A DNA stretch of 11,815 nt from the UHGV virus genome UHGV-0038384, one strand, 5' to 3'. The notes under the pieces were generated by a model that ran no database searches, was not told the origin of the DNA, and was given only the letters and a program-made list of their open reading frames with translations. Both the position numbers and the translations under genes were made by a program. Numbering within the stretch: position 1 is the stretch's first letter; each line of letters opens with the position of its first letter. Shown piece after piece: positions 1,698 through 11,815 of this stretch. This stretch comes from a virus.

Positions 1698-1979
1698 TTA
1701 CGTACGCAGTCGTTCCGGCTTCTTCCAGTGGTACGTTATTTTCTCCTTCTCCCGATACATCTCCACGCGGCGACGGTAGGCCAGCAACTCAAGAACTCTG
1801 GTTCGTATGTTGCGCATATCCACGCCATTAAGTTCTATACCATCACGGCGCATCACCTCAGCAACAACACGCACATAATTTTCAGCGGTCACGCTGTCCG
1901 GCTGTGTGGCCTGTTCGTCATGCTGCTGGCTGATTCCGGTAACGCGGCGGATTAATCCCAGTAGTTCGGCTTCTGTCAT
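1698..1979 (-). CDS. Hypothetical 93-aa protein; first gene on the minus strand downstream of the cosB-like segment
   Basis: ATG at 1979 preceded by a G-run Shine-Dalgarno (GGGGG, about 5 nt upstream); charged, helical-looking translation; no family recognised. Confidence 0.45.
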   Translation of the reverse strand: MTEAELLGLIRRVTGISQQHDEQATQPDSVTAENYVRVVAEVMRRDGIELNGVDMRNIRTRVLELLAYRRRVEMYREKEKITYHWKKPERLRT

Positions 1980-2013
1980 TGTGCCCCCATCGCTCTGATA
2001 GTCTGGTGTCGTC

Positions 2014-2059
2014 GGGTCCTTCCTGGAATTATGGCCCGTTACGGGGCGGCGACCTCGCG
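2014..2059 (+). other. Lambda-type cos site copy A (cosQ-like plus cosN), plus orientation, without adjacent R-site repeats
   Basis: GGGTCCTTCCTGGAATTATGGCCCGTTACGGGGCGGCGACCTCGCG; contains the lambda cohesive-end 12-mer GGGCGGCGACCT at 2044-2055, followed by GGTTTTTCGCTATTTATGAGATTTT, which resembles the lambda left-end sequence as I recall it. Confidence 0.6.
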
Positions 2060-2410
2060 GTTTTTCGCTATTTATGAGATTTTTTGAGGGGGTGGTTGTT
2101 GTTTAATTGTTTGGTATATCTAATTGATAAGTAAGGTAAAAATAAAATAAATACAACAACCTTACGATGTATTTTGATGTCATTAATGTGAAAAAATTCA
2201 ATGATATCAAATGGTTTTGTAAAAACACATGGTTGTTGTATCGCGTATTTGATGGCGTAACAGAAAGTGATTTTTAACTTTACCGCTCTGTAACTACGGA
2301 TTATTCCATGCTGGCACGGAGAACGGCTACGGCATGACGCCACCCAGCCTATACAGAACAGTAAAGCCGATAAATTGTTAATCACGCGCAGCAATGCGTG
2401 TGATTTTTGC

Positions 2411-2563
2411 ACACTTCCGGTTAACGGGTACGATGTCCGGTTTTAGTGTCTGTTTTTTGCGCATGTCCGGTTCATAGAAAGCATGTTTTTATATTTTTCA
2501 TATGGTTAACTTGCAGAGAAACCGGACATGGATCCCGGAAAATTTTCATAAATAGTGAAAACG
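2411..2563 (-). promoter_or_regulatory. cosB-like segment with three ATGTCCGGTT repeats (candidate small-terminase binding sites) and AT-rich spacers
   Basis: ATGTCCGGTT at 2433-2442 and 2463-2472; its reverse complement at 2520-2529. Minus strand 2563 to 2535 reads CGTTTTCACTATTTATGAAAATTTTCCGG. The arrangement relative to cos copy B resembles lambda R3-I1-R2-R1. Confidence 0.45.
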
Positions 2564-2609
2564 CGCGAGGTCGCCGCCCCGTAACGGGTCCATATGCCGG
2601 AAAGGACCC
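2564..2609 (-). other. Lambda-type cos site copy B (cosQ-like plus cosN), minus orientation, contiguous with the cosB-like segment
   Basis: Reverse complement reads GGGTCCTTTCCGGCATATGGACCCGTTACGGGGCGGCGACCTCGCG. The 25 bp at 2564-2588 are an exact inverted copy of 2035-2059. The cohesive-end 12-mer complement is at 2568-2579. Confidence 0.65.
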
Positions 2610-2611
2610 GT

Positions 2612-2635
2612 AAAAAAAAGCCGGATTTCTCCGGC
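2612..2635 (-). terminator. Rho-independent terminator ending the capsid operon
   Basis: On the minus strand: stem GCCGGA, loop GAAA, stem TCCGGC, then T8; lies just after the stop of the 137-aa gene. Confidence 0.6.
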
Positions 2636-2641
2636 CTTGTC

Positions 2642-3055
2642 TCAGATGGTTTTCAGTATGTGATCGATGTCGCCGTCATCGCCCTGGTTTCTGCCATCGT
2701 ATGCCATGCCAGCTGATACGGCTTGCGGGCTGTGCATGTCCATAAAGTTTTCAAAGGCTGCGGTAAGCTCTGGTGCAACCTTTGGGCGCTCCTGCTCTAT
2801 GGTCATGTTCAGGATTTCACGAGCATTATCGACGCTAATACATGGCACGTTTGCCATTGCACGTAACAGCGGCTGATAGTCGTTATGTTCATGAAGCGCC
2901 ATAATCGCATCAGCGCGCGGCTTGTCCTGTTCTTCCAGTTTGTTGAGTTGATATACGGCCTCGTAGGTTGATAACCCTCTGTCAGCCATTGCCCGCGCTT
3001 CGGCTTTAAATTTACTCGCCAGCGGTAGCGCCATGATGCTTTCATTCGTTGCCAT
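2642..3055 (-). CDS. Hypothetical 137-aa acidic protein, last gene of the capsid operon next to cos
   Basis: ATG at 3055 with an AGGGGGA Shine-Dalgarno 5-6 nt upstream; starts 12 nt after the D-like stop; no family recognised. Confidence 0.5.
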   Translation of the reverse strand: MATNESIMALPLASKFKAEARAMADRGLSTYEAVYQLNKLEEQDKPRADAIMALHEHNDYQPLLRAMANVPCISVDNAREILNMTIEQERPKVAPELTAAFENFMDMHSPQAVSAGMAYDGRNQGDDGDIDHILKTI

Positions 3056-3067
3056 CGTTCCCCCTGC

Positions 3068-3403
3068 TTATCGGGCCAGCGGCTGAACGGATACGCCAGA
3101 ACCCGCAAAGGCGGCGCATTTTTTCGCATCGGTGTCGACGCTCTCAGGCCAGTTAACGGCGGCGATATTGAATATCCCCGTCTTATAGCACTGTGCTGAT
3201 TTCTGCGTCGACGTGTCAACGGGGTACGAGGTCAGATAAACAGCCTTGCCAGATTCCTGACCATCCCACGGCTTAAACTCGCCATTGTCCGCCAGCATCA
3301 GCGGGGTAAATTCCTGAATAACGCCAGCATCAGCGGCAAAATGTACCAGCGTCGTTGATACCTGCTGACTGCCTGCAAATAACTCAATGTATGGAGTGTT
3401 CAT
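3068..3403 (-). CDS. Head decoration protein, lambda gpD family
   Basis: Motifs TPLMLADNG...WDG, YKTGIFNIAAVNWPES and KKCAAFAGSGVSV align with my recollection of lambda gpD (TPLMLD...WDG, YKSGTFRYEDVLWPEA, KKRTAFAGTAISIV). ATG at 3403 has a GGTGGA Shine-Dalgarno; an alternative GTG start lies at 3412. Confidence 0.75.
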   Translation of the reverse strand: MNTPYIELFAGSQQVSTTLVHFAADAGVIQEFTPLMLADNGEFKPWDGQESGKAVYLTSYPVDTSTQKSAQCYKTGIFNIAAVNWPESVDTDAKKCAAFAGSGVSVQPLAR

Positions 3404-3414
3404 AGAATCCACCG

Positions 3415-4470
3415 TTAACCAATTTTGACGGTAACAAATTTGCGAATATCTGCCGGAACAGGCTGCGGTGCGCTGTGTGTCTGCACGTACTCAATCGCCG
3501 GATCGCCGTCTTCAATCCAGTTTTTCGGGTAAAACATGTTTTGCGTTGCGCCCGTTCTTACCGCTTCCTGTTCCATAATCGCACCATAGGCCACCAGCCC
3601 TTTATTGTTGGTGTTGCCCAGGACCAGCAAATCAGGCTCAAGGAAATATTTTTCTGTGCCGTCGCTGTCAGTGTATTTGCCGGAATAGACGATAAGGGCC
3701 AGATCACCAAGATAGCCTTTAAAGCTCACCACTTCTCCCAGGTTTTTACATGCCAGCTCTGCGGCGGATTCTGAACCACGGGAGAGATCGTACAGTTCAC
3801 GGAATTTTTTAAAGCTGCGTAACATGCGCCATACATCAACGCCCATAATCATGACGTTTGCGGGGCAACCTGCCTGATCTGCGTATAGCTCAATGTCATA
3901 GATTGGGTCGTGTATGTCTTTGTCCTGCTCTGACCATTTTTTACCGTCGGCCTGCTCTATGATGTTTTTTTCCGGTATCTTCCAGTCGATTTCATAGCGC
4001 TCTATGCCTTCGCCCTCAATGATGTTTTTTCCGGTCGTTACCGCATTTACCGCCAGCCATTCCACGCGCGCTTTAATGGCGTTTATCTGGCGGCGCATGT
4101 TGCCAGTAATCAGGCGCATACGGCGGTAGGTAGGGTCGTTAAGCTGTGCTGGATCTTCTCCAGCCATGCGCATTATTGTTTTTAATGGATCGATTTCGTG
4201 TTTTGGCTTCATGTAGCCAGGGCGAATAATGCTTGTTTCGTACCCTTTATCGCGCTGAACCTGGCTACCCACCATAGGCGAACAAAACGCCGACATAGTG
4301 ACTTCTTCAATATCCAGGTTATCTAACATGATGTCCTGTGTGTTGAATGTCGCCACGTTCGGGAAAAACAGCGCGGTAAACAGCGGACTGAATTTAAATT
4401 CCGCAATATCCTCGCGATTCAGGTACGCAAAAAGCTGGTTAGTGTTAAGTGATATTGCTTTTACTGTCAT
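3415..4470 (-). CDS. Major capsid protein, lambda gpE family
   Basis: 351 aa. FKFSPLFTALFF, PGYMKPKHEIDP, WSEQDKDIHDPIYDIELYA and YPKNWIEDGDPA match lambda gpE as I recall it (FKFDPLFLRLFF, PGYVKPKHEVNP, WSKRDKSTYDPTDDIEAYA, YPKNWVTTGDPA). Start overlaps the upstream stop as TAATG. Confidence 0.85.
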   Translation of the reverse strand: MTVKAISLNTNQLFAYLNREDIAEFKFSPLFTALFFPNVATFNTQDIMLDNLDIEEVTMSAFCSPMVGSQVQRDKGYETSIIRPGYMKPKHEIDPLKTIMRMAGEDPAQLNDPTYRRMRLITGNMRRQINAIKARVEWLAVNAVTTGKNIIEGEGIERYEIDWKIPEKNIIEQADGKKWSEQDKDIHDPIYDIELYADQAGCPANVMIMGVDVWRMLRSFKKFRELYDLSRGSESAAELACKNLGEVVSFKGYLGDLALIVYSGKYTDSDGTEKYFLEPDLLVLGNTNNKGLVAYGAIMEQEAVRTGATQNMFYPKNWIEDGDPAIEYVQTHSAPQPVPADIRKFVTVKIG

Positions 4471-4676
4471 TATTCACCCCCGTGAACCTGATTCATACCC
4501 AGCGCCGCGCGTAAATAGGCGCGTACCTGCCAGCCTGTTGACGGCTCAACCATCGCCAGCGGATCAAGTCCTGCCGCAATGCCTGCTTTTACGTTCTGCT
4601 GGTGGCGTTCCTTGAGCGCCTTCACGATGTCGGGGCTTATGTACACCGAAACACCGCCTTTTTTCTCTTCAGCCAT
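4470..4676 (-). CDS. Hypothetical 68-aa protein translationally coupled to the E-like capsid gene
   Basis: ATG at 4676 with an AGAGGAA Shine-Dalgarno; its stop overlaps the E-like start (TAATG at 4468-4472); no family recognised. Confidence 0.5.
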   Translation of the reverse strand: MAEEKKGGVSVYISPDIVKALKERHQQNVKAGIAAGLDPLAMVEPSTGWQVRAYLRAALGMNQVHGGE

Positions 4677-4733
4677 AGTAAGAAATTCCTCTTTGACTTA
4701 AAAAATCATAACTGGATGTTCATCCAGATCTGA

Positions 4734-4760
4734 TTATAATCATGATTGCATTTTATGCAA
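4734..4760 (-). promoter_or_regulatory. Sigma70-like promoter for the capsid operon, with overlapping palindromes
   Basis: On the minus strand: -35 TTGCAT (4760-4755), 15-nt spacer, -10 TATAAT (4739-4734). Palindrome TTGCATTTTATGCAA (4747-4761) overlaps the -35; inverted repeat CTGGATGTTCATCCAG (4712-4727) lies between the -10 and the start codon. Confidence 0.4.
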
Positions 4761-4843
4761 TGATGTTGAGTTGTGTTGCAAATTATGAAATGATAATCCC
4801 GATCATGTGTGTCAGTGCGCCAAAAAAAACCTCATATGCAAAA

Positions 4844-4882
4844 GCCCGATAAGATGCCTCCTGTACTTATCGGGCTTTTTTT
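4844..4882 (+). terminator. Plus-strand rho-independent terminator
   Basis: Stem GCCCGATAAG (4844-4853), 12-nt loop, stem CTTATCGGGC (4866-4875), then T7. Confidence 0.5.
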
Positions 4883-4886
4883 GGGT

Positions 4887-4910
4887 ACAAAAAAGCCGGA
4901 TTACTCCGGC
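4887..4910 (-). terminator. Minus-strand rho-independent terminator after the perC-like gene
   Basis: On the minus strand: stem GCCGGA, loop GTAA, stem TCCGGC, then TTTTTTGT; lies 7 nt after the perC-like stop. Confidence 0.55.
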
Positions 4911-4916
4911 TGTTGA

Positions 4917-5189
4917 TTAGCTGCCTGGGTAATTACGCCATATTTCATCGCTTACACCATCTATACCCATTTCAGCATAAGTGCGATCGACTGCCTTTCT
5001 CAGGTCTCCGAAGTTATCCGGCGGCTCCGGTGGCCTCTGTGCCTTCCTGGAACATTCCAGCCGTCGCATCGTAACCTGATGCCGTTCCTTGTCTGTCTCC
5101 ACCAGCTGCATGACTTCACCCCATCGTGCCGCCGCCCTCCGGTAAAAGCCTTTTGCCTCGAGTTCCTCCGCTATGCGGTCATGTACCAT
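4917..5189 (-). CDS. PerC/Pch-family transcriptional regulator-like protein (90 aa)
   Basis: MVHDRIAEELEAKGFYRRAAARWGEVM resembles the PerC-family signature as I recall it (leucine-rich helix, then WRRAA.RW). Start chosen at the first ATG after the ssb stop (5189), with a GGGGGTGAGG Shine-Dalgarno; the track's longer ORF overlaps ssb. Confidence 0.55.
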   Translation of the reverse strand: MVHDRIAEELEAKGFYRRAAARWGEVMQLVETDKERHQVTMRRLECSRKAQRPPEPPDNFGDLRKAVDRTYAEMGIDGVSDEIWRNYPGS

Positions 5190-5199
5190 CCTCACCCCC

Positions 5200-5610
5200 T
5201 CAGAACGGAATATCATCACCGTAAGGGTCATCGCCTCCCGCTGGTGGCTGATTACCCTGTGTGCCTGTGGTTTTGCGTCTGTTCCCGCCAGGACGTGCCG
5301 CACGGGCACTGATTACGCTGTCTGCAATAACCTGATAACCCTGCCGCGTTTCCCCGTTCTGTCCGGTCCACTGGCTGACCTGCATCGTGCCGGATACGCT
5401 GGCAACGTCGCCTTTTTGATGTTTAGCCAGGAAGTCGGCCTGCTTACCAAATGCCATCACCGATAGCCATAACGTAGCCTGCCCATCCTGCGCCTGACTA
5501 CATGGCAACGATACCGCCATACGTGCCAGCGTCATTGGTGTGCCCTTGCTGGTCTGTTTTACCTGCGGGTCGTCCACCAGCCGCCCGTAAGCCGCTATCT
5601 GTGCTGTCAT
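5200..5610 (-). CDS. ssb: Single-stranded DNA-binding protein
   Basis: 136 aa with an OB-fold-like N-terminus, a Gly/Pro/Gln-rich linker and the canonical acidic C-terminal tail DDIPF; start overlaps the upstream stop (ATGA). Confidence 0.85.
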   Translation of the reverse strand: MTAQIAAYGRLVDDPQVKQTSKGTPMTLARMAVSLPCSQAQDGQATLWLSVMAFGKQADFLAKHQKGDVASVSGTMQVSQWTGQNGETRQGYQVIADSVISARAARPGGNRRKTTGTQGNQPPAGGDDPYGDDIPF

Positions 5611-5885
5611 GCTGTCTGCTCTCCGGTTTTAACGTTGATGGTTGTTACCTGTTCCGCTTCTGCAATCTCCCGCTCTGTCAGCGTGGCAAAGTTTGCCGCC
5701 GCCGTGGTCATGAATGCGCTTATTAGTTCGGGATGTGCTTTCGAGTATCCTTCTCCCGCTGTGATGTCTATCACCTTTATAGCCACCTTTAAGGCGTGCT
5801 CTGTCATCTCCAGCGCTTTATATCTTGGTGCTGTTCTGTCTTTGCGTTTTTTGAGTGATTTGTTAAATCTTCCTGATGTGTGCAT
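5607..5885 (-). CDS. Hypothetical 92-aa protein translationally coupled to ssb
   Basis: ORF with ATGA overlap onto ssb; basic N-terminus (KSLKKRKDR); start codon uncertain (ATG at 5885 or at 5807); no family recognised. Confidence 0.45.
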   Translation of the reverse strand: MHTSGRFNKSLKKRKDRTAPRYKALEMTEHALKVAIKVIDITAGEGYSKAHPELISAFMTTAAANFATLTEREIAEAEQVTTINVKTGEQTA

Positions 5886-5930
5886 TTTTATTTTTACTCT
5901 CGTGTTTAAAAAGTTTTAGGTTGTGGTGCA

Positions 5931-6160
5931 CCTCCTCTACCTCTCTACCTAATCATCTTTCATGTCAGTAATGGCGCGGCTTTCAGATGGGTAGAGGGCT
6001 TTCGTGGCCCTCTACCCATCCTCTACCCGCCCCTCACAAACGATCTTAATCATGGTAGAAGAGGTAGAGAGGTTTTATTAGCCTTCTACCTAGCCCTCTA
6101 CCCACTTATCATGTTGAATAATATGCGTTTATTTCATTCAGGTGGATGGGGTAGAGGACT
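5931..6160. repeat. Iteron cluster (GGTAGAGG / CCTCTACC core), putative replication origin
   Basis: About ten copies in both orientations: 5935-5941, 5943-5949, 5989-5999, 6007-6017, 6021-6029, 6054-6060, 6063-6072, 6082-6090, 6094-6103, 6148-6157. Includes an inverted pair GGGTAGAGGGC-N7-GCCCTCTACCC (5989-6017). AT-rich flanks; sits immediately 3' of the primase-helicase gene. Confidence 0.6.
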
Positions 6161-6171
6161 TTTACAAAAAA

Positions 6172-7920
6172 TTATAAAAACGCGTCACAATCATCAGTTG
6201 TAATTGCGTTGGTCTGCGTTACTCCCTTAACTCTCCGCGTAATATATTCATGTCCGTAAACTTTTGCCGCTGGCTTCATGGCCTTGCTGAACTCAGCCAC
6301 GTTTAGCGGTTTGCTCCTGCCTGCGTATGCCATAAACGCCAGATAGACGCGGTAAAGGCTGTTTCTGGTCGTGTACTTCACGGAATCGCCACCGCCACCC
6401 ATCATCAGGCCGCGCGCTTCCTCCAGAAAATTCAGGAACTGGCAAAACTCAATAACCGGATCCGTCTGTTGCTTTATCGCCAGTGCTTCATCACCGTCGC
6501 GCTGTTCCAGTAATAAAGCCCGTGCCTTTTCAGGGTCGGCAAAATTAGCCAGCAAGCGACGGATAATTACGGGGATTTCAGCCGCGACCTTCTCCGGCAA
6601 ATCCTTGTCTTTTTCGTCCTCCCTTACAATGTTGTCGAACCGGAAAATCACCCGACGGCGTGACACACCTCCGGCCCGCTCGGTGAATATCATCGGGTTA
6701 TTGTTGGTAGCCAGCACCACCGCCCTGATTACCGCCGTGAAACGCTTTTCATATTTCGGGTTAATTTCCACGGGGTCGCCGCCTGTGATTTTCTTGATGC
6801 CCGTTCCTTCGCCTGTATATTTCGGCTGGTCAGCCAGGACGATAAGACGACTCCCGACAACCTGCGCACGTCCACCAGCATCATCAAGCGATGTCATTTC
6901 AGCGCTTACCGTGTTCTGTTTCCCTGCCAGAAGGCTGGCTATGTGTGTGAATGTACTTTTACCGCTACCGCCCTCTCCGGTGGCCTCAATAAACATCTGC
7001 CAGTCGTACCGGTTCGCCATAATCATGTACAGCGCGGCACATATACGCATCATCTTGCGCGAGTCTTTTCCGGCTGCGTGCTCAAGCCATTTATGAAAGT
7101 TTGGCGCGTTATCGCGGATGTTCTCCCCTGGTGCTGGTGGCGTGTACTCAATGCCGTTGTTCGTGGTGATCCAGTTCTCCGGCGTGTGCGGGGAAAATTC
7201 CCCCGTTTTCAGGTCAAGCGCACCATTGGCGAACGGCAGCAAATCGCCGGACGGCTCGCCCATTGGTTCGGCAATAACTTTTAACGCTTCCACGGCGTTA
7301 TTGATTACGCGCTTGCTGAAAGTGGCCCTGTGCTCTGAATAGATCGCCACCATTTCGCGGCTAAGTTCCATTGTGCTGACCGGACACCATACCCCGCCGC
7401 GCCATACGTGAACGATTTCACTTTCCGGATGCACACAAACGCCATCAAATCGACCAGCAAGCATCTGTGCGCGCTCACTGTCTGCCATTTGTGCCAGTTG
7501 CGTATTTTTCTGCTCCGGCATGGTAAGCCCTGCGGCAATATTTTCACGCTCAGCATTCAGATAGCGCCGCCAGTTTTCACACTTCTGGACGTGCATTCCT
7601 TCGGGGTAAAAATTTGCGTCCTGAATATCTGCCGCCGCCAGCTTCTGACCAATCTTTTTGGTCTCCACCAAATCCAGTTCTCCGGCCTGGTACAGCCTTA
7701 CGCGTTTTTTTCCATCAGGAACAATTTGCAGTGCATCAAGTTCGGCAAGCTGATTTGGCCCAAGCCACACAGGAGGCACATTATCGCCGGATGCGGGGCC
7801 GTCCTGCTCCTGCCACTGTTTTGCATGTGCCCACGCATCACTACCCGCGAAAATAATCACCTCTGTGTCTTTGTGTTTTATTCCGCGTGGCTGTTTTTTT
7901 ACGTTCGGTGCCAGTTTCAT
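6172..7920 (-). CDS. Primase / replication initiator with P4-family (D5-like) NTPase-helicase domain
   Basis: 582 aa; Walker A motif EATGEGGSGKSTF and Walker B-like RLIVLADQ in the C-terminal half; start overlaps the upstream ORF stop (ATGA); iterons lie immediately downstream. Confidence 0.85.
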   Translation of the reverse strand: MKLAPNVKKQPRGIKHKDTEVIIFAGSDAWAHAKQWQEQDGPASGDNVPPVWLGPNQLAELDALQIVPDGKKRVRLYQAGELDLVETKKIGQKLAAADIQDANFYPEGMHVQKCENWRRYLNAERENIAAGLTMPEQKNTQLAQMADSERAQMLAGRFDGVCVHPESEIVHVWRGGVWCPVSTMELSREMVAIYSEHRATFSKRVINNAVEALKVIAEPMGEPSGDLLPFANGALDLKTGEFSPHTPENWITTNNGIEYTPPAPGENIRDNAPNFHKWLEHAAGKDSRKMMRICAALYMIMANRYDWQMFIEATGEGGSGKSTFTHIASLLAGKQNTVSAEMTSLDDAGGRAQVVGSRLIVLADQPKYTGEGTGIKKITGGDPVEINPKYEKRFTAVIRAVVLATNNNPMIFTERAGGVSRRRVIFRFDNIVREDEKDKDLPEKVAAEIPVIIRRLLANFADPEKARALLLEQRDGDEALAIKQQTDPVIEFCQFLNFLEEARGLMMGGGGDSVKYTTRNSLYRVYLAFMAYAGRSKPLNVAEFSKAMKPAAKVYGHEYITRRVKGVTQTNAITTDDCDAFL

Positions 7921-8216
7921 TTTTTACCCCTGAATACGTTAAGCATCTTTTTTATTTCCTGAATATTGGCGCGTGCTTTCTCCCTGCTGGTTGGAACGTT
8001 ACGCGGTACAGCCTGCACCAGAGAAAAATCACGGTCGAACTGATAAACAGGCATCACGCAATCATATTCGTAGCCTTCACGACGGTAGGTTACGCGCCGT
8101 TCCTCCACGCCCTTAATCATTACCGTGCCGCCGTACTGGTCGCGGTAAATATCACCGCGCATGAATTTAGTGCGAGTTTTGCCACTGGCAGTTAAGCCAG
8201 AATATTTAAGTTTCAT
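7917..8216 (-). CDS. Hypothetical 99-aa basic protein coupled to the primase gene
   Basis: ATG at 8216 with a GGAG Shine-Dalgarno; its stop overlaps the primase start; no family recognised. Confidence 0.55.
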   Translation of the reverse strand: MKLKYSGLTASGKTRTKFMRGDIYRDQYGGTVMIKGVEERRVTYRREGYEYDCVMPVYQFDRDFSLVQAVPRNVPTSREKARANIQEIKKMLNVFRGKK

Positions 8217-8221
8217 TATTT

Positions 8222-8449
8222 TTATTCTCCGGTATGGGGCGAGTTATTATTCTCGTGAATTGCCATCACTGTATTTAATTCATTAATAACAGGCGTTAAT
8301 AGCGTACGCACGGCAGAAAACATCATTGAATCAGATTCATCGCCACTTTCCGGCACATCAATTAACTTAAGTAGTAATGCGTCCATTTCCTTTGCGAGGA
8401 TTAATGCGTTTTCAGAATGAACAAGAACATCAAAGGGTATTTTATGCAT
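8222..8449 (-). CDS. Hypothetical 75-aa acidic protein
   Basis: ATG at 8449 preceded by GGGGGGGAG; ends 5 nt before the 99-aa gene start. The track's 109-aa version begins upstream inside the preceding repeat unit. Confidence 0.5.
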   Translation of the reverse strand: MHKIPFDVLVHSENALILAKEMDALLLKLIDVPESGDESDSMMFSAVRTLLTPVINELNTVMAIHENNNSPHTGE

Positions 8450-8612
8450 GACTCCCCCCCTGGCGAATACGGGCGACAAAAATAAGATGTGCGTGCGGCA
8501 ACTGGGCGCGGGCTTCGCGTTCAGTGGCTGCGGTAACGGTGAATATTGCAATGCTGTCTGTCAGGCACTGCATAAAGCGCCAGACAAAGTAAGGGCGTGC
8601 GGATACAGCCAT
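8442..8612 (-). CDS. Small repeated protein, unit 3 (56 aa), possibly Icd-like
   Basis: AGGAG Shine-Dalgarno plus ATG at 8612. Translation MAVSARPYFVWRFMQ...VTAATEREARAQLP...FVARIRQGGSHA shares motifs with unit 2. Icd-like assignment is from memory of the family and is uncertain. Confidence 0.35.
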   Translation of the reverse strand: MAVSARPYFVWRFMQCLTDSIAIFTVTAATEREARAQLPHAHLIFVARIRQGGSHA

Positions 8613-8898
8613 GTGAAAGGCTCCTACAGTAATTTTAAGGAGTCTCGCTACTACGCTGTCAAACATGGTGGCGAGACGTAACAGGGTTGACAGACTGGCA
8701 CTGTAGAGACCAGCGAGCGCAAAGGCTCCCCCGTTACGCCCCGCCATAATGCGGGTATGGGTAGGTTTACGGACACAAAAAAACCGCATATCGGAATGTA
8801 AGCGGCTGTCCGCTACAGTATTCAGGCTGTCAAACCCGGTCGCCATGTGGGCGACGGGGGAAGCATACAGCCCCGTGATAATTTTTTGCAAGCGGTTT

Positions 8899-9087
8899 TT
8901 ACGCATGATGTGACCCCTGACGAATACGAGCGGCAAATACAGCAACACAACCTGACGGGCAACGGCTACGCGCTTCGCGTTCTGTCCAGGCGGTTACGTG
9001 GATGATTTGAGATTCTGACGCGCCAAAGATGATAAAGCGCCAGATAAATGCGGTTTGAGAATGTACAAGGGTAGGGATAGTAGCCAT
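8899..9087 (-). CDS. Small repeated protein, unit 2 (62 aa), possibly Icd-like
   Basis: GAGGAGG Shine-Dalgarno 8 nt before ATG at 9087. Translation MATIPTLVHSQTAFIWRF...VTAWTEREARSRCP...FAARIRQGSHHA. Confidence 0.4.
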   Translation of the reverse strand: MATIPTLVHSQTAFIWRFIIFGASESQIIHVTAWTEREARSRCPSGCVAVFAARIRQGSHHA

Positions 9088-9456
9088 GTTGGCAGCCTCC
9101 TCAGTGTGGTTAAGATAACCGCCACGCAAAAGGCTAATTTCGCTGGTGGCGGACTGTACAGGGTTAGCCTTACCGGACACTGAAGAAACCGGCGCGGATT
9201 GCTCCGCCCCCGTACAGCCCACCATTGATAAGGTGTGACTATGCGGCACAAAAAAACACGCGGGGCGCGTGCTGTGCGCTTCAGTTGTTTTCAGGAGGCT
9301 AATCCCGACACCCGTTTTATGAGGTGCGCGGGAATCATAGCCATTTTTGCTGGTGGCGATCAAGCGGTTTTTTTCTCCGGCACTCAGTGCCAGAAAACGC
9401 CACACAAAGGCCGTTTGTGTGTGTACAAGGTGTGGTATATGATTTACGGCAACCAT
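9088..9456 (-). CDS. Small repeated protein, unit 1: N-terminal homologue with a degenerate tail, fused in frame to unit 2 with no stop of its own
   Basis: AGGAG Shine-Dalgarno plus ATG at 9456; MVAVNHIPHLVHTQTAFVWRFLALSAGE parallels the unit 2 N-terminus; the frame stays open to the unit 2 stop at 8899. Confidence 0.25.
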
Positions 9457-9536
9457 AACGGCTCCTAGTTTACGTTGTTGGTTAGAAGCCCCGTTACTGC
9501 TCCTACAGTGCGGGGCTTTGCTTTTTGTGTTGATTG

Positions 9537-9557
9537 TGTGTAATGTGTCATTACACA
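9537..9557. promoter_or_regulatory. Inverted repeat upstream of the Arc-like gene, candidate autoregulatory operator
   Basis: TGTGTAATG-N3-CATTACACA (9-bp arms) about 30 bp upstream of the GTG start at 9586. Confidence 0.35.
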
Positions 9558-9585
9558 TAAATACATTACATGAGGTGTAATTAAC

Positions 9586-9765
9586 GTGTCAACACACAAA
9601 AACGAAAGGCGTGGTAATCCTCCGTTCCAGTTCCGTTTAGATCCTGACTTACGGGAAAAGATGGAAAAGGCACAACAACAGGACGGCGATGATTCTCTTG
9701 CTGCCTGGATAAAGCGAATAATCCGCAAAGAATTACAGCAACGCGGCATAGAACCCAAAGGATAA
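9586..9765 (+). CDS. Arc/Mnt-type ribbon-helix-helix DNA-binding protein (59 aa, GTG start)
   Basis: Not in the ORF track (below its length cutoff). GAGGTG Shine-Dalgarno 8 nt before GTG. Translation VSTHKNERRGNPPFQFRLDPDLREKMEKAQQQDGDDSLAAWIKRIIRKELQQRGIEPKG fits the RHH pattern (P.F.FRL...LREK.......G.S......RI). Confidence 0.55.
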   Translation: MSTHKNERRGNPPFQFRLDPDLREKMEKAQQQDGDDSLAAWIKRIIRKELQQRGIEPKG

Positions 9766-10147
9766 AAACTATCAGCGCCGTGGTGTGAGGTACTCCGGCG
9801 CATTGCTTTACAGGCGCACACAATGACCAACGAAGAATCAACCGAAAAAACATCACCTGCACGAAAAAGACGACGCAGAAAGAAAGAGCATGAATCAGAA
9901 CGATTCGCGCCGTGTTCTTTTGCCCTTGAGAAGTACCTTAAAGAATACTCATCAAAGGAGAGAGCTTCGCAGTTATGGCAACGAACTGAACCAGACTGAT
10001 TGCATTGCCCACCAGCCTGATAGCGGCTATCATCCCCGTGCTTATGTTTGGGATCACACACACAAACAGCGCAGCGGGTTATCTGTTCAGAAAGACGGCT
10101 CCATATCGGGGCCGCTTTTTTCGTGTTTGTCATATCTGTGATACCCG

Positions 10148-10354
10148 TTAAGCAGCCGTTCCGCGTGCTTCCTCTTCGCGTTCTTTCTGCCAGGACAACA
10201 CATCATCCTCATACCATCCGCGACGGCGTAAACCAACGCGAAAACCCTGCGGAAATTCTCCGGCGTTGATCATGCTTTGCAGCGTGCTGTCTGCCTTGAT
10301 GTGGATAATTTTTTTTACTTCCTGGCGAAAGATAATTTTTCTGATTGCTTCCAT
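10148..10354 (-). CDS. alpA: AlpA-family transcriptional regulator (prophage CP4-57 regulatory protein type)
   Basis: 68 aa; IIFRQEVKKIIHIKADSTLQSMINAGEFPQGFRVGLRRRGWYEDDVLSWQ matches the AlpA helix-turn-helix pattern; lies on the integrase side of the operon. Confidence 0.8.
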   Translation of the reverse strand: MEAIRKIIFRQEVKKIIHIKADSTLQSMINAGEFPQGFRVGLRRRGWYEDDVLSWQKEREEEARGTAA

Positions 10355-10431
10355 CGTGATTTACCTTGTGAATCCGGTGTATTCCGGTGACAAATACGGT
10401 AAATCATCAGATATGGGTAAAAACAGTTCCC

Positions 10432-10447
10432 ACCGTTTTTAAACGGT
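10432..10447. promoter_or_regulatory. Palindrome upstream of alpA
   Basis: ACCGTTTTTAAACGGT, perfect inverted arms ACCGTTT / AAACGGT, followed by a partial repeat ACACCGTTTTTT; sits between the int-operon terminator and the alpA start. Confidence 0.3.
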
Positions 10448-10487
10448 ATACACCGTTTTTTATATTGATGATTTGAAATGGAATTAT

Positions 10488-10510
10488 AAAAAAAGCGGCA
10501 TTTCTGCCGC
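10488..10510 (-). terminator. Minus-strand rho-independent terminator after the int / ORF83 unit
   Basis: On the minus strand: stem GCGGCA, loop GAAA, stem TGCCGC, then T7. Confidence 0.55.
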
Positions 10511-10521
10511 TTCCAGGATTG

Positions 10522-10773
10522 TTACCGCCATTTTTTGGGCCTGCCTCCGATCTTCATAGATGCCGGACGTACGACCTTATCAATACTTACCGCCAGATTT
10601 CTGGAAGCGCCACGGGATACCAGAAAATCTACTACCTGTTTTTTTGATGGGGCCGTCGTTCTGTCCTCCGGATCGTAGGTTGACCAAAATTCATGCTGAA
10701 CCATCAGGGCCAGTTGCAGCCCGTCGCAATTGCATCTGATATTTTTTTGCATCTTAACGGTTTCATGTTTCAC
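10522..10773 (-). CDS. Hypothetical 83-aa protein between int and alpA
   Basis: ORF starting with GTG at 10773 (alternative ATG at 10752); followed directly by a terminator; weak ribosome-binding site; no family recognised. Confidence 0.3.
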   Translation of the reverse strand: MKHETVKMQKNIRCNCDGLQLALMVQHEFWSTYDPEDRTTAPSKKQVVDFLVSRGASRNLAVSIDKVVRPASMKIGGRPKKWR

Positions 10774-10850
10774 GGCCTTGTCGTTAAATTTGATGCAATT
10801 ATACGACGGTTTTACATGGTTTTCGTAGTTTTTACTGGTTTTCTGTACAG

Positions 10851-11815
10851 CTACACGGCTCGGATACCCCTTTTACCACTGGCGAGGGTTACGCCCGTCG
10901 CCGCAGCCTCGACAAATTCGCCCCACCAGCGCATCAGCACGATGCGTTTTTCTATGTAGTTGCTCCGGTTGTATGCCCGTCTAACTTCGTTGGTGTCGAC
11001 GTGGGCAAGTGCCGCCTCTATTACGTCCGGCTCGAATCCTTCCTCGTTCGCTGCTGTGCTGAATATGGCGCGTAATCCATGAGACACCAGCACGCCAGCG
11101 AATCCCATACGCCGCAATGCTGCGTTAGCTGTCTGGCTGTTCATCGGCTGCTGTGGGTCTTTCAGACTTGGGAAAACGTAATTGCGGTGGTGGCTGATTG
11201 GTTTCATGGCCTCCAGCACCGCCATAGCCTGACCGGAAAGCGGGATAACGTGATCCCTGCGCATCTTCATGCGTCCGGCAGGTATCGTCCATTGCTTCGC
11301 GTCCAGGTTGATTTCATCCCACCGCGTTGATGACGCTTCGGCGGGACGGGTTACGGTCAGTAACTGCCATTCAATCAGTAATCTGGTCTGCCGTTCTGTT
11401 GCCGATACTGATAAAGCCTGCATAAGCTCGGGCAGCTGTTCGGGGCGGATTGTTGGCATATGTTTTTTTACAGGTGAGGGAAACGCCTTACGCACATTCA
11501 TAGCCGGATTGGCATCAATCAGCCCACTGTTGGCGGCGTAATCCATTACCTCATTAACGCGCTGTAAAACCCGCTTGAGTGTTTCCAGGTTGCCGCGCTC
11601 CTTGATGGGGGTAAGCACTTCAACGAACCTTCGGGCGGTGAGGGTATCTATTGGCGTGTTGCCGATGAACGGGAATACATATTTATCCAGCGAACGCCAG
11701 ATGTCTTTAATCGTGTTGGGGGCCAGATTCTGGCTGATTTTCACCTGGTACCATGCCGCCGCCACATTTTCGAACGTGTTCCCTTGTCTTCGGGCCTCTG
11801 TCTCTCTTTTTTGCC
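10851..11815 (-). CDS. int: Tyrosine integrase, P4 / phage-integrase family; 5' end outside the window
   Basis: Catalytic-domain motifs (HGLRAIFSTAANEEGF, ALAHVDTNEVRRAYNRSNY) and core-binding region. The frame remains open from the track's GTG at 11765 to the window edge, so the N-terminal domain is upstream of the window. Confidence 0.85.
   Translation of the reverse strand, partial: QKRETEARRQGNTFENVAAAWYQVKISQNLAPNTIKDIWRSLDKYVFPFIGNTPIDTLTARRFVEVLTPIKERGNLETLKRVLQRVNEVMDYAANSGLIDANPAMNVRKAFPSPVKKHMPTIRPEQLPELMQALSVSATERQTRLLIEWQLLTVTRPAEASSTRWDEINLDAKQWTIPAGRMKMRRDHVIPLSGQAMAVLEAMKPISHHRNYVFPSLKDPQQPMNSQTANAALRRMGFAGVLVSHGLRAIFSTAANEEGFEPDVIEAALAHVDTNEVRRAYNRSNYIEKRIVLMRWWGEFVEAAATGVTLASGKRGIRAV

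Follow-up and report, generated by a model that had tools for sequence, protein, structure and literature searches.

EcCICFT073 is a phage-inducible chromosomal island (PICI) from an experimentally dissected Gram-negative family. Its transfer is helper-dependent, it is induced by AlpA, its iteron origin lies 3' of the primase gene pri, and both of its cos sites are functional (PMC6092414). Induction, the replication origin, and cos packaging by lambda and phi80 have been demonstrated, with packaged DNA of phage length (PMC6092414, PMC6739421). Three further PICIs (EcCIATCC25922, EcCIED1a.1, and EcCI11128) are catalogued at the yejM-luxR (narP) locus (Table S1 of PMC6092414). Here, we describe the island carried by viral genome UHGV-0038384, an 11,815-nt stretch of DNA analyzed over its whole length (the window). 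We consider it highly likely that this is an EcCICFT073-family Gram-negative PICI of ~11.4 kb, inserted at tRNA-Pro (proL) with a P4-type integrase and packaged by cos mimicry instead of terminase re-programming.

Two other satellites offer partial precedents. Like the window island, 11capE (PMC10111431) is a Gram-negative PICI that has an E-family capsid gene but no terS, and the helper is presumed to package it directly by way of its ~258-bp helper-like cos segment. It differs in sitting inside the helper's capsid gene and in belonging to another integrase clade, and no pairing of two cos sites with different phage cosB types is described for it. SaPIbov5, a cos-type PICI of Staphylococcus aureus, likewise uses its helper's cos instead of terS and encodes Ccm, a homologue of the helper major capsid protein. 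Its lineage is Gram-positive and its regulation Stl-type. Ccm was shown to redirect capsid size, whereas the E and D homologues of the E. coli family are without known phenotype.

Gene content and relationship to described islands

The window contains almost the whole island. It was syntenic with EcCICFT073 (strain CFT073, sequence L004, element from 27931 to ~39000), with ~90% nucleotide identity over positions 2533-8247 and 1705-2085. The EcCICFT073-like stretch comprises DUF4222, pri and its origin, ORF92, ssb, perC, ORF68, the E-like and D-like capsid genes, ORF137, and ORF93. Both islands measure ~11.4 kb, carry a convergent pair of lambda-type cos sites between ORF137 and ORF93, and are transcribed in one direction. 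In the open reading frame (ORF) listing of the window, all genes lie on the minus strand except two small divergent plus-strand genes (9586-9999). The islands differ in integration site, EcCICFT073 occupying ycfD-phoQ with another integrase, and in alpA, which is divergent (27% identity). The immunity region also differs, consisting here of two C4/isrK/icd units, and sequence comparison found no counterpart of 8247-9772 in EcCICFT073.

Other parts of the island were closer to EcCIATCC25922, which shares the yejM-luxR locus with EcCIED1a.1 (Table S1 of Fillol-Salom 2018, PMC6092414). The integrase and ORF76 proteins were identical to those of EcCIATCC25922 (the integrase accession is the same) and alpA was near-identical. 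The two islands also have in common the arm-type repeats beside the integrase gene, a damaged tRNA fragment, the capsid module, and two convergent cosN sites. EcCIATCC25922 differs in having no perC and in encoding, between its cos sites, a full-length small terminase of the Nu1 type (TerS; 180 aa, Pfam Phage_Nu1). The window island has neither TerS nor Rpp, its icd/C4 region is different, and its pri is only ~85% identical. Judged by these similarities, the island is a mosaic with an EcCIATCC25922-like left arm, an EcCICFT073-like right arm, and immunity and packaging segments unlike both. As the family has been described and PICIs are already catalogued at yejM-luxR, the overall architecture is no discovery.

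Domain and motif scans recovered the genes and sites on which the original prediction of a satellite was built, namely a P4-type integrase, a primase-helicase, an iteron origin, cos, and E-like and D-like genes. Compared with the published PICI features (Fillol-Salom 2018; SatelliteFinder PICI model, PMC10085698), the island has an integrase at one end, a primase with an iteron origin, capsid-morphogenesis homologues, a size within 10-15 kb, mostly unidirectional genes, and integration at a dedicated att site, the proL 3' end. Capsid-morphogenesis homologues rank among the core components of Proteobacterial PICIs. A small terminase or Rpp was sought in all six frames of the window; no TerS similarity appeared, and only a 22-codon rppA remnant was found. 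With four of the five core components, the island would fall under "Type B" in the PICI classification of PMC10085698. Its synteny and ~90% identity with EcCICFT073, together with core-gene flanks described below, bear out the prediction that the locus is a cos-type helper-dependent satellite, not a prophage, as far as sequence can tell.

Chromosomal location and boundaries

A megablast search of 5,426 complete E. coli genomes located a 99.3%-identical locus in strain S1-CAM-02-A (NZ_CP145707; L001). There, tRNA-Pro and yejM lie on the int side of the island and yejO, narP, and ccm on the other, and the same core genes flank the island of a second occupied sequence, L015. A complete lambdoid prophage around the locus had been named as the observation that would speak against a satellite. 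Since core genes flank the island in NZ_CP145707, and no phage morphogenesis or lysis genes (terminase, portal, tail, lysis) were present near it, the locus is not embedded in such a prophage. No tRNA gene was found within the window. In NZ_CP145707, proL adjoins int.

To define the junctions, the empty site of K-12 (L005) was compared with the occupied sequences L001, L008, and L015. The empty site reads GGGATTTTTGGTCGGCACGAGAGGATTTG, the last portion of which is the proL 3' end, and this end is the integration point. At the int-proximal junction of occupied genomes the tRNA is intact. The int-distal attachment (att) junction, which is the left island boundary, lies at 947-954, where CACGAGAG is all that remains of the displaced 3' fragment of proL. 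Beside it the window carries a 9-nt deletion (TTTGGTCGG). The corresponding deletions span 1 nt in L008 and 2 nt in both L001 and EcCIATCC25922, always with the same end position.

The left boundary therefore falls ~750 bp left of position 1698, and the right boundary ~0.5 kb past the right end of the window. The original prediction had placed the att sites outside the window and left both boundaries undefined; this applies to the tRNA-side junction only, the int-distal one being present at 947-954. The complete island unit measures 11,370 bp (L001 8745-20115). Near the left boundary, tandem CGTATAAC(C/T)AAA repeats (1016-1039) match a motif that occurs 2+2 times beside int (L001 19920-19977). 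These are probably integrase arm-type sites, and for PICIs at yejM-luxR, Table S1 of PMC6092414 gives the same motif as the "att site core".

Two convergent cos sites with different phage-type cosB

The predicted cos was indeed of lambda type, but two convergent sites were found instead of one. The exact lambda cosN (GGGCGGCGACCT) occurs at 2044-2055 (plus strand) and 2568-2579 (minus strand), with the cosB sides facing each other. Both copies lie within a 72-nt inverted repeat that also contains a cosQ-like GGGTCCT. Cos site A (2014-2259, plus strand), on the ORF93 side, consists of the cosQ-like GGGTCCT (2014-2020), cosN, and a phage-type cosB (2056-2259) with TGGTTGTTGT at 2093-2102 and 2230-2239 and an inverted copy at 2152-2161. 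Cos site B (2345-2609, minus strand), on the ORF137 side, has its cosQ-like element at 2603-2609 and a phage-type cosB (2345-2567) with CCGGACAT at 2522-2529 and inverted copies at 2463-2470 and 2433-2440. Each cosB thus contains three R-like elements; the first occupies bp 50-59 counted from cosN, as R3 does in lambda. From their orientation, site A would direct packaging rightward and site B leftward. A convergent cosN pair is also present in EcCICFT073 and EcCIATCC25922, and paired cos sites were reported as characteristic of the family in 2018. The pairs compared were at 37559 and 38298 (L004), 1565 and 2432 (L008), and 10801 and 11668 (L015).

The two cosB segments matched different prophage lineages. 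The cosB of site A was 94-98% identical to the cosN-terS interval of O121/O111-type lambdoid prophages, up to ~40 nt before terS. Site B showed 94% identity to cos2 of EcCICFT073 (L004 38075-38340), a sequence confirmed in Fig. S5 of PMC6092414, and 88% identity to the cos upstream of terS in O157/O26 prophages. In EcCICFT073, the ORF137 side instead holds cos1, followed by a PICI-specific cosB and rppA, and RppA re-programmes the helper TerS to that cosB (PMC6739421). Both rppA and the Rpp-dependent cosB are missing from the window island, which has the cos2-type cosB on the ORF137 side and the O121-prophage-type cosB on the ORF93 side. Neither window cosB resembled the cos1 type. What is left of rppA is its last 22 codons (2283-2348, minus strand; tblastn to EcCICFT073 RppA residues 123-144, 73-82% identity), and nothing else in the window resembled Rpp or TerS. 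EcCIATCC25922 and L008 encode a full-length Nu1-type TerS where EcCICFT073 has rppA.

A corresponding split was seen in the terminases of the two prophage lineages. TerS of the O26/O157 type (L016 943-1452) and of the O121 type (L007 6262-6741) were near-identical from about residue 75 (the C-terminal two thirds), with unrelated N-terminal DNA-binding domains. This difference looks like a domain swap parallel to the differing cosB repeats, and is what two cosB specificities would predict. The two cosB types of the window are accordingly predicted to match two alternative alleles of the TerS DNA-binding domain.

The packaging segment without rpp is not a private deletion of this island. An uninterrupted copy of the 662-bp module (1980-2641), 97-100% identical, was present in each of 11 complete genomes. 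Its carriers include islands at proL, at thiM-rcnR, and at clpS-cspD, the last with a different integrase and a DUF927-type primase; the hosts came from human, yak, and chicken. The module is rare, with at least 80% of it covered in 14 of the 5,426 genomes. A simple inversion between the inverted cos repeats was considered as the cause of the swapped cosB and rejected, as the orientation of the rppA remnant is unchanged. We infer that the arrangement is better explained by two events of gene conversion or replacement with cosQ-cosN as their anchor. By comparison across the family, cosB appears to be swapped as a cassette through recombination anchored in the conserved cosQ-cosN.

Two side observations concern how cosB varies among these islands. 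On the ORF93 side it is phage-like throughout, with a type that changes (CCGGACAT in EcCICFT073, CFT073-phage-4-like in L008, and GGTTGTTG in the window). On the ORF137 side, cos fits whichever specificity factor the island itself encodes, RppA or a TerS, where one exists.

A conserved capsid and scaffold module

The island encodes a full-length gpE-like major capsid protein (3415-4470, minus strand; Pfam Phage_cap_E, 3.9e-49) and a gpD-like head decoration protein (3068-3403, minus strand; Pfam HDPD, 3.7e-18). Identity of the E-like protein was 43% with lambda E and 47% with its counterpart in a CFT073 prophage; for the D-like protein, the corresponding values were 37% and 44%. No structural genes had been expected beyond these two, a statement contradicted by ORF137 (2642-3055, minus strand). 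In BLASTP, ORF137 was 36% identical over 83 aa (E 2e-10) to residues 416-493 of a gpC-like CFT073 prophage protease 501 aa in length. Comparison with the gpC-like C-terminus by hhalign gave a probability of 95% (E 4e-8), and the C-terminus of phrog_53 matched at 7e-10. By these alignments, ORF137 is a homologue of the nested, Nu3-equivalent C-terminal scaffold segment of the lambdoid gpC protease (residues 415-493 in the CFT073 prophage protein).

BLASTP detected no similarity between ORF137 and lambda Nu3 itself. Its AlphaFold2 model, built from a 9-sequence alignment, was all-helical and of low confidence (predicted local distance difference test, pLDDT, 62.6). Homologue searches returned almost only E. 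coli proteins, at 82% identity or above, under the NCBI name "phage head-tail connector protein". No Pfam, NCBIfam, or PHROG model supports that name, and the gpC-type C-terminus is the only detectable homology.

All island genes were intact and under purifying selection. The ratio of nonsynonymous to synonymous substitution rates (dN/dS), calculated pairwise among four islands, was 0.07-0.14 for E, 0.06-0.15 for D, 0.09-0.33 for ORF137, and 0.21 for pri, so that the constraint on E and D is tighter than that on the primase. In EcCICFT073, deletion of c1499 (capsid) or c1500 (decoration) gave no phenotype with lambda or phi80 (PMC6092414). Strong constraint despite phenotype-free knock-outs points to a role for the E and D genes that lies beyond the lambda and phi80 assays.

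Two small proteins accompany the capsid genes. ORF68 (4470-4676, minus strand; phrog_3255) is coupled to the capsid gene by TAATG and 98-100% conserved across islands. ORF93 (1698-1979, minus strand; phrog_1561, 2e-57) is a PICI-specific protein beside cos and a homologue of the last EcCICFT073 gene, with 83% amino acid identity to the CFT073 copy and a dN/dS of 0.2-0.3. Its AlphaFold2 model from a single sequence consisted of three helices, again at low confidence (pLDDT 64.3). For ORF93 and ORF137, PDB sequence searches returned nothing meaningful, and tblastn found no match in 50,697 phage records. Terminator-like hairpins bracket the capsid module, one after the PerC gene (4894-4911) and one closing the operon (2617-2638, minus strand).

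Proposed packaging cycle and alternative explanations

We propose the following cycle for induction, cutting, packaging, and helper use. By analogy with EcCICFT073, a lambdoid helper would turn on the alpA-like regulator. The unidirectional operon would then be expressed, and Int, probably with the AlpA-like protein, would excise the island. Pri would replicate it from the iterons 3' of its own gene, producing concatemers. Helper terminase would bind either phage-type cosB directly, cut cosN, and fill helper capsids. The direction of packaging would be set by the cos that is cut and would run to the next cos in the same orientation, with four units per head.

This number is consistent with island size. 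Four units amount to 45.5 kb, or 94% of the lambda genome, and three or five units to 70% and 117%. Lambda packaging limits would exclude both 70% and 117% of genome length. Much the same length recurs in EcCICFT073 (11.4 kb) and among the remaining catalogued islands (11.0-11.4 kb), a pattern suggestive of selection for units one quarter of a genome long.

Because two complete cosB types match two TerS alleles, unmodified helper terminase of either type should recognize the island directly, and packaging should be able to proceed in either direction. A more far-reaching reading joins two claims: that the rpp-less module is a functional, bidirectional, dual-specificity packaging origin for either helper lineage, and that the E, D, and Nu3-like trio is a working shell-assembly module with natural helpers. 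We advance this joint reading tentatively, as less likely than not.

Several observations weigh against the main explanation, that of a PICI packaged by cos mimicry. In EcCICFT073, deletion of rppA or cos1 strongly cut the transfer achieved by lambda and phi80, two phages for which cos2 on its own served poorly as a substrate (PMC6739421). An island without rpp could therefore be a poorly mobile derivative unless its hosts have cognate helpers. The rppA remnant implies that the arrangement arose, undesigned, by deletion or gene conversion. The distal att lacks 9 nt of a 17-nt identity block, a deletion that might impair excision, albeit one of a kind typical of tRNA-Pro PICIs. Membership of the alpA-like protein in its family is also weak by Pfam. 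The gene called alpA in the original prediction does encode a helix-turn-helix protein in the right position, but its best Pfam match (Phage_AlpA) scored 17.9 bits, under the gathering cut-off of 21. It had no NCBIfam match, and its 27% identity to EcCICFT073 AlpA gave a pairwise E of 6e-7.

Some of these points would also suit a decaying, immobile PICI remnant, stranded by the loss of rppA and the Rpp-dependent cosB and by its truncated att, with cos sites that are functionless leftovers. The need for rppA and cos1 in efficient EcCICFT073 transfer, the mere 22 codons left of rppA, and the shortened distal att favor this explanation, as do an "ash" coding sequence annotated as a pseudogene in the near-identical L001 and the scarcity of the cos arrangement (14 of 5,426 genomes). 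We nevertheless regard it as unlikely. Copies of the rpp-less module that are 97-100% identical occupy at least three integration sites, alongside differing int and pri modules, which requires recent spread. The int, pri, E, D, ORF137, and ORF93 genes are intact, with dN/dS of 0.06-0.33, and both cosB segments are complete and near-identical to those of live prophages. Deletions of variable length in the tRNA fragment are normal in tRNA-Pro PICIs, "damage to the tRNA attR fragment" being described as a PICI-specific trait that extends to this group (PMC10111431). Finally, the "ash" coding sequence is probably not a protein gene, because the Pfam "Ash" match and the RefSeq "ash family" pseudogene overlap C4 and isrK RNA genes on the same strand.

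The capsid genes raise a further alternative, namely what is left of a defective lambdoid prophage, or else a capsid-forming PICI able to build heads of its own. In its favor are the lambda-type E and D genes, the Nu3-like scaffold homologue, the strong purifying selection on the capsid genes, and the lambda cos. We consider it very improbable. No portal, large terminase, head-tail connector, tail, or holin/lysis family was matched by the window ORFs in Pfam, PHROGs, or NCBIfam. The hallmarks of capsid-forming PICIs (their own portal, protease, large terminase, and head-tail adaptors) were likewise missing among these ORFs, and neither a repressor nor lambda-type replication genes were found in the window. 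Moreover, the compact int-alpA-pri-ori backbone is kept across many islands, and core genes flank the locus.

A P4-like satellite needing a P2-type helper, suggested by the P4-type integrase architecture, the P4-family primase C-terminal domain (TIGR01613), C4/CI-type antisense RNAs with Icd-like genes as in P1 and P4 immunity regions, the ~11-kb size, and tRNA integration, is scarcely credible, since no window ORF matched Psu, Sid, Delta, or Epsilon in Pfam or PHROGs, the exact lambda cosN has lambda-type cosQ and cosB and not P2/P4 cos, the capsid genes are of lambda E/D type, and the nearest relatives are PICIs shown experimentally to be mobilized by lambdoid helpers (lambda and phi80). What the island has in common with the P4-like model of SatelliteFinder is confined to int, the alpha-like primase domain, and alpA-like components.

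Integration, replication, and immunity genes

The P4-type tyrosine integrase gene extends from 10851 to the window end (11815, minus strand). Its N-terminus is cut off, leaving the C-terminal 320 codons with the Phage_int_M and Phage_integrase domains (NF007246, 552 bits). The full-length protein in L001 has 413 aa and comprises Arm-DNA-bind_3, Phage_int_M, and Phage_integrase. ORF76 (10522-10752, minus strand) and the 68-aa alpA-like gene (10148-10354, minus strand) come next. Two tandem 20-nt repeats (AAACAGTTCCCACCGTTTTT and AAACGGTATACACCGTTTTT) lie at 10421-10460, 67 nt upstream of the alpA-like start. They are candidates for an operator that serves AlpA autoregulation or responds to the inducing signal of the helper, and they overlap an inverted repeat (10375-10394 and 10436-10455). 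The two divergent plus-strand genes encode a YlcI/YnfO or Arc-like protein (9586-9765) and ORF58 (9823-9999) and are homologous to the divergent pair of EcCICFT073.

Replication functions center on pri (6172-7920, minus strand), a primase/superfamily 3 helicase with D5_N, DUF5906, Pox_D5, and TIGR01613 domains. The iteron origin (5935-6156) lies directly 3' of pri, within the ~90%-identity block shared with EcCICFT073, and has two sets of GGTAGAG/CTCTACC around an AT-rich stretch. All eight exact heptamers of the window fall in this interval, compared with 0.53 expected for the whole window, and none of 200 shuffles reached eight. The pri-ori of EcCICFT073 is functional, and origins of Gram-negative PICIs are described as iterons 3' of pri (PMC6092414). 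Flanking genes on the same strand encode a DUF4222 protein (7917-8216), ORF92 (5607-5885), and Ssb (5200-5610), followed by an accessory regulator of the PerC family (4917-5189; Pfam PerC, 2.5e-44).

The immunity-like region (8222-9327, minus strand) was delineated from Rfam, NCBIfam phage_ICD_like, and direct repeats. Rfam matches above the gathering score comprised two C4 antisense RNAs (8664-8751 and 9142-9229), an isrK-like RNA (9251-9327), and a c4-a1b1 target (8819-8868). A ~460-nt unit is tandemly duplicated (direct repeats D1, D2, D4, and D5), with an Icd-like ORF after each copy (8442-8906 and 8899-9087; NCBIfam phage_ICD_like), and ORF75 (8222-8449) closes the region. All of these features lie on the minus strand. 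The "ash" coding sequence is probably a translated RNA gene, and the long "ash" and 168-aa ORFs, both of which overlap these RNAs, are probably not genes. A PADLOC scan of ten small or uncharacterized proteins returned no defence family.

At the opposite end, the window begins in yejO (1-847), an autotransporter gene beside the island that is a degraded pseudogene with a large internal deletion: 3-451 and 446-818 map to L001 5998-6446 and 7601-7974 (compared over L001 6045-8636). The island end at 955-1697 is ~740 bp of non-coding, repeat-dense DNA. It contains five GTTAAC-containing motifs (1181-1196, 1204-1217, 1225-1238, 1296-1312, and 1416-1428), a perfect 13+13 palindrome (1146-1171), a C9 run (1388-1396), and two exact 17-nt copies of GTGGTCATTATGACCAT at 1460 and 1555, 95 bp apart. 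A 40-nt segment (1407-1446) is 95% identical to the EcCICFT073 end. Within the attP arm, these repeats may serve to bind regulators or recombination directionality factors.

Translation starts

The original prediction described G-run Shine-Dalgarno sites throughout the island. Such sites are real at the five genes it named (ORF93, ORF137, the E-like gene, the PerC gene at its 90-aa start, and ORF75), where GGGGG lies 4-6 nt upstream of ATG, but they are not uniform. Runs of at least five G were found at 5 of 15 genes and runs of at least four at 7 of 15, the remainder having GGAG/GAGG-type or weak sites. Five of the nine runs of at least five G on the gene strand occupy a Shine-Dalgarno position (binomial P ~2e-9). 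The same class of site occurred at 9 of 18 genes in EcCICFT073 and 6 of 18 in EcCIATCC25922, versus 4 of 56 in lambdoid prophage and 1 of 72 in core genes. Enrichment was 5- to 30-fold for the family, with a Fisher P of 0.001 for the window. The D-like gene and ORF92 have GGGGG in both described islands and have lost it in the window (GGTGG at 3404-3412; GAGAG at 5886-5905), so the G-run is not strictly maintained.

Stop-start coupling was confirmed where it had been noted, with ATGA overlaps at DUF4222/pri and ORF92/ssb and TAATG at ORF68/E. Two 8-nt overlaps (ATGCGTAA and ATGCATAA) occur in the duplicated icd units. Overlaps at 5 of 11 same-strand junctions are usual for phage-like operons. 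The further proposal of co-evolved translational control found no support. The G-run sites have the strongest predicted anti-Shine-Dalgarno pairings of the island (-8.4 to -15.5 kcal/mol), GGGGG and GGAGG differ by one G-U pair in pairing to the 16S 3' end, and no C4 or isrK RNA partner complementary to the G-run ribosome sites was seen. The runs thus represent strong Shine-Dalgarno sites and the overlaps ordinary operon coupling, with no sign of dedicated control. The GGGGG signature is probably a mere sign of strong translation starts.

Implications for satellite biology

For annotation, the window yields a PICI of a described, experimentally dissected family that is already catalogued at the proL/yejM-luxR locus. 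Its interest for satellite biology lies in the rpp-less dual-cos module, the constrained capsid and scaffold genes, and the G-run ribosome sites, which offer a cheap signature. Within this family, even at one locus, the segment between the cos sites takes three forms: it holds Rpp, it holds a Nu1-type TerS belonging to the island, or it is empty. Where it is empty, both cosB sequences are copied from helper phages, which suggests that cosB is swapped by recombination at cosQ-cosN.

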